In this document: piece by piece, positions 24,001 through 27,000 of the stretch
How the letters are laid out: every line of letters begins with the position of its first letter
Position numbering within the stretch: the first letter of the stretch is position 1
From: a plasmid
Length of the DNA stretch: 64,000 nucleotides
Direction: 5' to 3' (one strand)
Assembly: GCF_988243305.1 (NCBI RefSeq)
Contig: NZ_OZ547139.1
Made by a program: the position numbers

Positions 24001-27000
24001 AAAAAAAGAACCAGCAACAGCCGAAAAAAAATCACTGGAGTTGACGAAGAGCAGCGCACACAAAATAGCTCTACCGCTCAGAATCCTGACGCTTCAGGTC
24101 CGCAGTATTAACCTTCACCTTTCGCATATAGCATCCAACATTATGATATAGCTCCCGGCCTGACAGGCCGGGCATGGGTGCTGCCTGTTCGTGTAATTGA
24201 GCGTGCATACTTGTCACCGTTCCGGTGACAAGGGCACTCATTGGCCGGAAAAAAATTTCCGGTTCCGCTGCAATGCAGCGCTCAATGGTGCGCACGTTCA
24301 GGACCACGATCCGCCTTAGATCCCGATAAATTTACAGGGAAAGGAGTCCGGGCACGGATATTAAAAAGGGGCGCTTACAGCGCCCCTGAGACAGTTACAG
24401 ATTACATCGCGGCTTCTTTAATCCGCCGGAACACTGCCAACCAGAAACGGAAGTGATCCCATTGCGCTGCGTTCATCGGATGCGACTTTGTTTGCACTCC
24501 GTTTGCGACATCTTCAGCATAGTGTATAATCCACAACGGCATTTTGAACCTCACAATTTAAATTGCCTACCCAGCCGGATTGTTGGCGCAATCCGGCACC
24601 TTTTCTGGATTTCAATGATTCATCACCTCCTTCACATCCAGAACCAAAAAGTTATCGTTAGCGTGACGCTGCCCTACGATGAAAACAGCATCAAAGCGAC
24701 TTACTGCAACTACGTTTAGTTTGCCTGTAACCTCCTTTCCGTTGATGTTGATGGTTTCATAGAGCACCTCGTATTCCTTCGCAGAATCGGAATACTTCTG
24801 CTCTTTCCAGTTTTCTATCTGTGCGATCAGCTCCGGGGCCAGCTGCTGACGAACACGGTTTAGTTCATAGTCACGATTGAGAATCAGGCGGTAATCTTTA
24901 ATTAGCTGGTTGATAACCTTGTTCTCATCCCACTCGGATAGCAGTGGGCACTGTTCGCACTGTATAACACCATCTTTAATCAGTTTTTCTCTGATGCCAT
25001 TAACAACCTGTACAGCACTTAATTCACTGTCGTAGTTCTTTTTAATTTCATCGCTTCCCGGATATACCATAGCGACATCATTAAAATGGCTTACGATTAA
25101 TTCTGACACAATAAGGGTATAAACCTCATAAGGGTATAAGGTCGCCATAATATTCTCTCCACGTTATTTACAGAGCGTTTTAATCAATATCCACTTTTAA
25201 ACTTCACGATTATTATACGTCTAATGAGCCATTGCAGGCAAGAAAAAAATGCCCCTTTTCGAGGCATATTTTTAACCGGTTTACCACTCCCAAACGGTCA
25301 GTTCTGGCACCTGTTCTGCATCCCGGTCAAACCAAATCCAGTCGAACCCGGCACCATTTAACGCGGCTATATTATCCAAAGCACTTGCACTGATCCCCGC
25401 CCTGGCTAATTCCACACGCCATTGTTCAGTAGCAGAAATACGCAATATCCACCCATAGCGATTTTTCTCGATCCAGAACAAACCTTGACCGGACAAGTCA
25501 TCGTTACAGACCTTATCCAGTAGCTCCGCGTCTTCTTTTTTTACATGGCCGGTACTGACGACAGCCACCCGATATTGTTCACTGATATTCATACTCCCCC
25601 CCCTTCAGGGTTGGCGGCCCGCGCCCTGCGGGCCGTTCTAACTCAAATACTCACTGCGGGTAATCATTCATATCCGGGAACGGCGGTTCATCATGATTTT
25701 CAGTGCCTCCCAGACCTTCAGCACTGGTGTTACGTGGCCCAGCTCCCGGCAGCATCTGCATTTCGCCGTTATTATCGATCACAATTTCCTTGTTACTGCG
25801 CATTTTGCCGTCTGTCCCTTGCCATTTGTTATTACGAATGCGCCCGACAAAATACAGCATCATACCCTTTTTGAAGTACTTCCCAGCTGCTTCGGCCTTC
25901 TTTCCAAAAATGACAACATCATGCCATTCCGTTTCTTTTTGCTCCTTCCCTTCGTTGTCGCTGTAGCTGATTTCTGTAGCCAGCGTCAGGCTCGCAATGG
26001 CCGTTCCGTTTGGGGTGTAACGCACTTCTGCATCTTTGCCAGCACGCCCCATCAGAATCACTTTGTTTTCGCCACGTTTCCACATAATACACCTCATATA
26101 TTTGATGTTTATCAGTAAAAAATGGGAGGATTAAGGGGGATTTCTCCCCCTCTTTATCAGTAAAACTTCACGTTCGATTTCAGGGCTTTTTCAAAGTCTT
26201 TTACAAAGGAATTTGCAAAAGTGTAATCACGATGAATAAGCTGTTTTGTTTTAGGATTTCGCCACTCAACCTGCACTGATTCGGCTGAGTATTCGATCAC
26301 CTCGATTTGATTTTTTACACCGAGATAATCAGCAATTGCCATTACGGCATTCACTTTTTTTTGGTCTGCTTCTTTCATTTCAACTCCTTCGCCAGTCGGG
26401 GCGCTACCGCGAAAGACTCAACTGCCTTTCGATGTAATAATTATACGTCTAATGAGCCACTTTATCAACTCATCAGACGTATTTTTTTATTTAATTTTGT
26501 TCAAATATGAACATTTATTGATGCTAAATATCTAACATAATGGCTTGAATTTGGCCTTGTTGTAGGTGATCCGGTAGTCTTTGCACTTCCCGTTCTGCCG
26601 CAGGAACTCCAGCGAGACAACGTTAGCAGCGGCAAAATTGATGCACATAATGCTTTCCAGCGCCTCGAACAGGTCGGCCCCATTGGCAAGCGGAAACCAC
26701 AGATCGTTGTCGCTACCGCTTAATTTTTCATGCAGACAGAAATGCACAGCACGCACGCCGCCAAATTCCGTAACCAGCACCGTATTGCTGGCGCGAATAT
26801 CAGTTAGTGTTAACATTTTTCCCCCTGTCAGTATTGGCCCCCTCGCGGGGGCCGCCGTTTCAGTCAATCGCGCGGTAAATCAAACCGGCTTCGGCGTGCT
26901 GGTCGGCATATAATTTGAGTTTTTCCTGCTGGGTGATCAGCATGTCGCAGATGTGCTGATAGCCTTCTTCATGTGCGTGCCAGATCATGCGGTTCAGGGT

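Follow-up and report, generated by a model that had tools for sequence, protein, structure and literature searches.

In the chromosomal SSB of E. coli (structures 1EQQ and 1KAW), the OB core leads into a linker and then an acidic tail, and the SSB encoded by IncL/M plasmids has a homologous core and the same organization. The carboxylate of the terminal phenylalanine of SSB makes a salt bridge in DnaG, and the pockets of ExoI, RecO, chi and PriA are described as similar (PMC5872125). An SSB carrying GFP at its C-terminus retains normal ssDNA binding but fails to interact with ExoI and is apparently dominant-negative, and the linker of the E. coli protein has been tied to cooperativity (PMC7293020). 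Conjugative plasmids also encode SSBs. The ssb genes of F and ColIb-P9 (IncF/IncI1, PRK13732) lie in the leading region near oriT and are transcribed towards oriT, as is the gene described here. SSBs from IncF, I, Y, 9, T and B/O plasmids are listed as complementing E. coli ssb mutants, a list in which IncL/M does not appear (PMC7690428).

The window, a 64,000-nucleotide stretch of plasmid DNA (contig NZ_OZ547139.1), encodes the IncL/M member of this family. Set against the E. coli end, ...MDFDDDIPF, its tail reads DEPPFPDMNDYPQ, without a terminal Pro-Phe-COOH; it differs further from the E. coli protein in having Tyr for W40 and a shorter linker (~19 residues).

The gene, its core fold and its place in the leading region

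The ssb coding sequence occupies 25651-26085 on the minus strand and specifies 144 amino acids, from an ATG at 26083-26085 to a TGA at 25651-25653, as supported by the ORF list, the sequence, RefSeq, and Pfam, NCBIfam and PDB matches. This start is favoured over that of a 148-aa ORF because a Shine-Dalgarno sequence, GAGGTG (26090-26095, minus strand), can be read 4 nt 5' of the ATG; the longer form would have its ATG inside that Shine-Dalgarno sequence, and its use is unlikely. The identical CDS is annotated as ssb in the RefSeq record of pNDM-HK (WP_015243642.1), and the gene itself is already known, being annotated as ssb everywhere.

The ssDNA-binding and tetramerisation domain, an OB fold of approximately residues 7-110 (25756-26067, minus strand), was delimited with PF00436 and by alignment to the structures of Pseudomonas and E. 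coli SSB. The protein scores 103.5 bits against PF00436 (cutoff 26; E = 7.6e-30) and 125.9 bits against TIGR00621 (cutoff 53.95), which places it in the bacterial homotetrameric SSB family; its best PDB match is 5YUN (E = 4.6e-35), with E. coli SSB at E = 1e-31. The earlier note had called this a plasmid SSB with a typical OB fold, and both statements are borne out by these scores and by the pNDM-HK annotation. Against the PRK13732 subfamily of the F-type proteins the score is 116.7 bits, below the cutoff of 265. An alignment of 51 SSB sequences shows no variation at W54 or H55 and hardly any at W88; F60 is kept, and the Tyr that replaces W40 is aromatic all the same. These conserved residues, together with the homology to solved tetramers, suggest a homotetramer-type OB-fold protein that would bind ssDNA with high affinity. 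The linker that follows (residues 113-131, ~19 aa; 25693-25749, minus strand) is little conserved, is probably disordered and is far shorter than its counterparts in the aligned SSBs.

The gene lies between orf32 (26157-26378, minus strand; 73 aa, no family match) and orf33 (25281-25592, minus strand), a 103-aa DUF5983 protein (PF19419, E = 1.6e-22; phrog_5003) that is syntenic in a Pantoea plasmid discussed below. A promoter scan found a sigma-70-like promoter, TTGATA-17-TATAAT, with 11/12 matches 5' of orf32 (26440-26468, minus strand), inside a repeated 95-nt cassette (26377-26471; repeat family D1/D2), and a terminator scan found a terminator-like hairpin with a T-run directly after orf33 (25249-25267, minus strand), the likely end of the transcription unit. 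This arrangement fits the published prediction of orf32, ssb and orf33 as a single operon in pOXA-48 (PMC12365149), and the three genes look like one leading-region unit beside oriT. The intergenic stretch that separates the ssb stop codon from orf33 contains a GC-rich hairpin, GGCCCGC-loop-GCGGGCC, with no T-run (25616-25634, minus strand), which has an equivalent with a different loop in the Pantoea plasmid.

The mobA and traI relaxase genes (21188-23717) are located 2 to 3 kb from ssb, which is transcribed towards them and thus towards oriT, and the neighbouring leading-region genes are on the same strand. The run comprises genes for DUF4942, Hha-like and DUF1380 proteins, a KlcA/ArdB-type antirestriction protein, orf32, ssb, DUF5983 (orf33) and a 178-aa ORF. 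A tblastn search of the window with psiB, psiA, parB-like and DUF905 genes gave a best E of 0.16, and none of the four is present in the pNDM-HK annotation. By analogy with IncF and IncI1 plasmids, ssb may be expressed early in the recipient. An F-type single-strand promoter upstream of the cluster was considered and rejected: folded as ssDNA, the cassette gives a hairpin (z = -3.3) in which part of the -10 hexamer and its downstream flank are paired and the -35 hexamer stays single-stranded, some of it in the loop. This hairpin is unlike Frpo, and what is found there is an ordinary linear sigma-70-like promoter. A plasmid primase, which would make recruitment of host DnaG or PriA superfluous, was looked for in the tra region, where a Pfam search of the 1175-aa protein at 14922-18449 returned LPD7, DUF5710 and extensin-like matches and no primase domain.

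The 2-kb region around ssb is 100% identical to that of pNDM-HK, a plasmid typed as IncL/M, MOBP and MPF_I. In PLSDB, 1129 plasmids have the DNA region and 904 the SSB protein, nearly all of the latter typed as conjugative and carried mostly by Klebsiella, Enterobacter and Escherichia; the 63.6-kb pOXA-48-type IncL plasmids are included.

A conserved C-terminal motif in place of the acidic tip

The IncL/M protein ends HDEPPFPDMNDYPQ before the TGA (in longer form, ...GTENHDEPPFPDMNDYPQ; as a tail peptide, NHDEPPFPDMNDYPQ). Its last 13 residues, 132-144 (25654-25692, minus strand), form a non-canonical motif, D-E-P-P-F-P-D-M-N-D-Y-P-Q, which is conserved in a Pantoea allii ortholog and in the IncL and IncM alleles. 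The acidic tip typical of the family, [D/E]-[D/E]-x-P-F-COOH, is absent, the protein ending in DYPQ. At least 90% of the 51 aligned SSBs have Phe in the terminal column, and all nine sampled SSBs from other plasmid groups (IncI1/B/O, several IncF types, IncN, a MOBC plasmid and a Pseudomonas plasmid) end [D/E]D[I/A]PF. Of 163 proteins retrieved, most of them the 150 nearest representatives of 50%-identity clusters (the best of 43,361 matches), 62 show the strict canonical pattern, and many of the others resemble frame-shifted or truncated gene calls. Among the 163 the IncL/M tail is confined to the IncL/M cluster.

To score the tail, a matrix was derived from 78 SSB tails with a PF end. The true C-terminal 13-mer reaches 2.6 bits, against 5.6 bits for the 13-mer ending at F136; canonical tails on the same matrix all score at least 9.2 bits (median 23.5). 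Over the last five matrix positions the internal DEPPF alone scores 12.9 bits, and the 13-mer ending at F136 outscores all but 0.2% of its own shuffles (p = 0.002). In the MAFFT alignment, by contrast, D141 falls under the near-invariant D, P143 under the invariant P and Q144 under the Phe. The alignment would thus have NDYPQ as a degenerate DDIPF, whereas the matrix prefers the internal DEPPF, and the correspondence appears ambiguous; neither places the tail in the canonical score range, and there is no terminal Pro-Phe-COOH either way. The absence of a D-I-P-F tip, which had been the central claim of the earlier note, therefore holds: the protein ends in DYPQ and lies below all 78 canonical tail scores.

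These same comparisons bear on a reading in which the internal DEPPF or the DYPQ end docks in the usual host pockets, perhaps more weakly, and the plasmid supplies an extra SSB. The five-position score of DEPPF and the shuffle result point that way, as do the MAFFT placement of D141 and P143 on the canonical near-invariant D and invariant P, the acidity of the tail, which it shares with canonical tips, and the SSB of Mycobacterium, which ends ...GGGDDEPPF, its last five residues being identical to the internal DEPPF of IncL/M. In mycobacteria, however, DEPPF is the extreme C-terminus, while in IncL/M it is internal and followed by a conserved PDxxDYPQ. Its Phe is 8 residues from the end in IncL/M and 11 in Pantoea, and so has no free carboxylate, the group that the published pockets use; ExoI binding is lost when the C-terminus is extended; the protein actually ends in Gln, a non-aromatic residue; and neither candidate 13-mer reaches the score of even the lowest canonical tail. 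Conservation of PDxxDYPQ across six synonymous changes in the motif (see below) would also be unexpected if DEPPF alone mattered. On balance we consider docking of the ordinary kind unlikely.

The diverged ortholog from Pantoea allii allows conservation of the motif to be assessed. It is 81% identical and is carried on a 66.8-kb plasmid with the same leading-region gene order and with IncL/M-like relaxase and type IV secretion genes. In a codon-by-codon comparison of the two genes, the OB domain shows a dN/dS of 0.07 at a dS of ~1. Non-synonymous codons make up 12 of 17 in the linker (residues 115-131); in the tail (residues 132-144), 11 of 13 residues are identical across six synonymous codon changes. 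Purifying selection therefore acts on the tail motif, DEPPFPDxxDYPQ. In the Pantoea protein the final Gln is followed by an additional AKG, and so the conserved feature is the motif and not a free C-terminus; the conserved unit is the entire 13 residues and not merely their end. Within the IncL/M group, the IncL (pOXA-48), pNE1280 and IncM alleles show few differences, and their last 14 residues are identical. A second Pantoea-type sequence, from a metagenomic contig, has two changed linker residues and an unchanged tail. The case for conservation is essentially one deep comparison, between two diverged lineages that both carry the motif. Both the motif as the conserved unit and the tip-like DEPPF within it go beyond what the earlier note had described.

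An unusual protein end can also arise through sequencing error, a frameshift or loss of a stop codon in a gene that is being lost. The absence of a significant transfer phenotype for a pOXA-48 ssb deletion in the laboratory would agree with decay, and some SSBs among the search matches do have junk extensions after DDDIPF. Yet the sequence is the same in hundreds of independently sequenced plasmids, the protein sequence of the tail is kept through synonymous changes while the linker diverges, and the dN/dS of the OB domain indicates strong purifying selection. No canonical tip is encoded in the other frames or downstream of ssb, and the Pro codon after F136 is CCG, which no single substitution turns into a stop. 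An artefact or decay is accordingly very improbable, and a frameshift or stop-loss origin is ruled out by the reading frames, by conservation through synonymous change and by the identity of the IncL and IncM alleles. The two ways in which the earlier note supposed that it might be wrong thus both fail, since the tail is identical in 900-odd plasmids and under selection in an 81%-identical ortholog, and the same tail was not found in the characterised SSBs examined.

Wider searches returned the tail from few places. A word-indexed protein search found it in the IncL/M and Pantoea clusters only, and in an exhaustive protein search the tail clade falls in one 50% cluster. A scan of 100,044 species genomes (one per species) gave a single IncL/M contig, in Pluralibacter gergoviae. 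When 241 million metagenome records were scanned with the degenerate pattern PPFPDxxDYP, 34 matches were obtained, of which eight are SSB tails (six IncL/M and two Pantoea-type) and the other 26 are chance matches outside SSBs. Judged from these genome and metagenome scans, in which only two plasmid lineages carry it, the tail is an innovation of the IncL/M-like backbone, specific to that clade.

What the motif may do

The explanation that we favour, with roughly balanced confidence, is that the IncL/M SSB coats incoming ssDNA but does not engage the host proteins that SSB usually recruits, and that its motif is there for some other partner. The leading region, where ssb of the IncL/M backbone sits, is the first part of the plasmid to enter the recipient. 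The SSB would cover the transferred strand as it arrives, either by itself or by forming mixed tetramers with host SSB; exonuclease I, RecQ, RecO, PriA and the chi subunit of Pol III, the usual partners of host SSB, would not be recruited; and the conserved DEPPFPDxxDYPQ would bind a different partner, encoded by the plasmid or by the host. We infer the loss of host partners because the published partner pockets grip both the terminal Phe and its carboxylate, and published structure-function work on E. coli SSB suggests that canonical partner binding would be lost here. Given these pockets and the behaviour of the GFP extension, it is reasonable to suppose that the tail changes which host proteins the SSB may engage. 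The new partner itself is suggested by the conservation of the motif.

Two observations sit uneasily with this explanation. The internal DEPPF is a working tip sequence in actinobacteria and might keep weak binding, and E. coli matings showed no significant change in transfer frequency when ssb was cleanly deleted from pOXA-48 (PMC12365149), which leaves no phenotype to anchor any model. In the same study, transposon sequencing of pOXA-48 showed that insertions in orf32, ssb and orf33 were enriched after conjugation (PMC12365149). We also modelled the tail with AlphaFold2, as a 15-mer peptide joined to E. coli chi by a 30-residue Gly/Ser linker and with 16-row alignments. Chi folded well (pTM 0.71), and the pLDDT was ~54 for the DIPF positive control and ~39 for the IncL/M tail, a difference that carries no weight as evidence with so weak a control.

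The motif could also act without recruiting a partner from DNA metabolism, either by tuning the mode or cooperativity of ssDNA binding or by signalling export of the SSB through the Dot/Icm-like MPF_I machine. An F-type system is known to translocate plasmid SSB along with other leading-region proteins, and IncI1 plasmids have their primase transferred by their own system (PMC8406263); the plasmid belongs to type MPF_I, and the tail is C-terminal and acidic. The unusually short linker is in keeping with an effect on cooperativity, to which the linker of E. coli SSB is tied. However, canonical tails are equally acidic and export would leave the loss of Pro-Phe unexplained, while an intramolecular role based on pure electrostatics needs no exact pattern of Pro, Phe and Tyr. 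A role of either kind seems to us distinctly unlikely.

The preferred reading, an SSB that coats ssDNA without the usual host partners, can be taken a step further. DEPPFPDxxDYPQ might bind one specific plasmid or host factor, and the missing Pro-Phe end might keep the nucleases, helicases and RecA-loading factors of the host (ExoI, RecQ, RecJ and RecO) off the strand, so that the protein would be a retargeted or stealth SSB. We hold this stronger version to be possible at best. If it is right, SOS induction and degradation of incoming DNA could be damped in a plasmid family that has no PsiB, and the main carrier of OXA-48 carbapenem resistance could be endowed with an unrecognised type of leading-region counter-defence.

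Significance and comparison with other SSBs

IncL/M plasmids, including pOXA-48 and carriers of NDM-1 such as pNDM-HK, spread carbapenem resistance among Enterobacterales. Their SSB is a natural, selected protein in which the DNA-binding core has been kept and the partner-recruiting tip replaced. It offers a clean handle on whether plasmid SSBs join or avoid the interaction network of host SSB, and on another route by which the recipient response to ssDNA could be limited without PsiB. The 13-residue motif is also short enough for direct peptide-binding and pull-down work. The non-canonical C-terminal motif appears to be undescribed: our literature search found no paper that discusses the IncL/M SSB tail, and no function described for it or for the phage extension considered next.

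SSBs of P22-like and lambdoid phages (g341c, epsilon34, HK75 and mEp235), whose OB domains are ~45% identical to that of IncL/M, resemble it in carrying a tip-like sequence followed by a C-terminal extension, so that the Phe is not terminal. They differ in keeping a perfect DFDDDIPF, followed by an unrelated 15-residue extension, APVTLPFPRHAIHAI. Two phage SSBs end EPPMDFDDDIPF or the near-identical EPPMNFDDDIPF. The IncL/M protein has no DDDIPF and no similarity to APVTLPFPRHAIHAI, and hence is not of the phage type. The phage proteins, with DFDDDIPF and APVTLPFPRHAIHAI, are an independent precedent for an internal tip.

Among plasmids, the IncF and IncI1 SSBs are ~45% identical to the IncL/M protein, and their genes likewise have antirestriction and DUF1380 genes as neighbours. 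The two kinds of leading region differ in that the IncF/IncI1 gene belongs to an ssb-DUF905-parB-like-psiB-psiA block, whereas IncL/M ssb lies between orf32 and orf33, and the two kinds of protein differ at their ends, GFSDDIPF in IncF/IncI1 and DEPPFPDxxDYPQ in IncL/M.

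Phage SSBs with an internal tip

The SSB of the P22-like Salmonella phage g341c (L007, positions 301-807) carries a perfect DFDDDIPF motif followed by 15 extra residues, APVTLPFPRHAIHAI, and the phenylalanine of the tip is therefore internal. The same protein was also matched in phages epsilon34, HK75, mEp235 and NM-3, at the level of the match, with the tail itself read only in g341c. These phage SSBs are another family in which masking of the tip is expected.

Gene content of the backbone and the oriT region

The IncL/M backbone has ssb, a KlcA-type antirestriction gene and umuDC, though no homologs of the SOS inhibitors psiB and psiA were found in the whole window or in the pNDM-HK annotation (L013, L014). 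The leading region holds instead genes for DUF4942, DndB/DGQHR, a RadC/JAB protein, DUF3085, DUF1380 and Hha-like products. In the tra region, the Pfam matches of a 1175-aa protein (14922-18449, minus strand) were limited to LPD7, DUF5710 and an extensin-like stretch rich in proline, and no primase domain could be recognised in it. On the oriT side, a 131-aa ORF (23716-24111, plus strand) divergent from mobA is probably the counterpart of orf35 of pCTX-M3; deleting orf35 increases mobilisation 100-fold and relieves repression of the tra operon (PMC8125031).

Hairpins and a repeated cassette in the leading region

A GC-rich hairpin (GGCCCGC-loop-GCGGGCC, 25616-25634) lacking a T-run separates the stop codon of ssb from the start of orf33. 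In the Pantoea allii plasmid its stem is conserved and its loop is different; the hairpin may serve mRNA stability or translational coupling.

Most leading-region genes in the window are preceded by a cassette of roughly 95 nt that recurs along the region, with copies at 26377-26471, 27303-27397, 28278-28372, 29565-29659 and 30868-30962 and partial copies at 27804-27845, 28597-28638, 30609-30650, 25212-25265 and 28836-28889. In the orientation of the genes, the cassette shows a sigma-70-like promoter close to consensus (TTGAT[A/T]-17-TATAAT), conserved hairpins in the 5' UTR, an AGGAG Shine-Dalgarno sequence and after these the start codon. As single-stranded DNA, the orf32 copy folds into a hairpin (z = -3.3) in which some of the -10 hexamer and its flank is base-paired. 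The -35 is flanked by an inverted repeat, ATACGTCT.AATGAG / CTCAT.CAGACGTAT, which could be an operator. The shared cassette suggests that the leading-region genes form a co-regulated regulon, an arrangement reminiscent of the CUP repeats in IncN plasmids.
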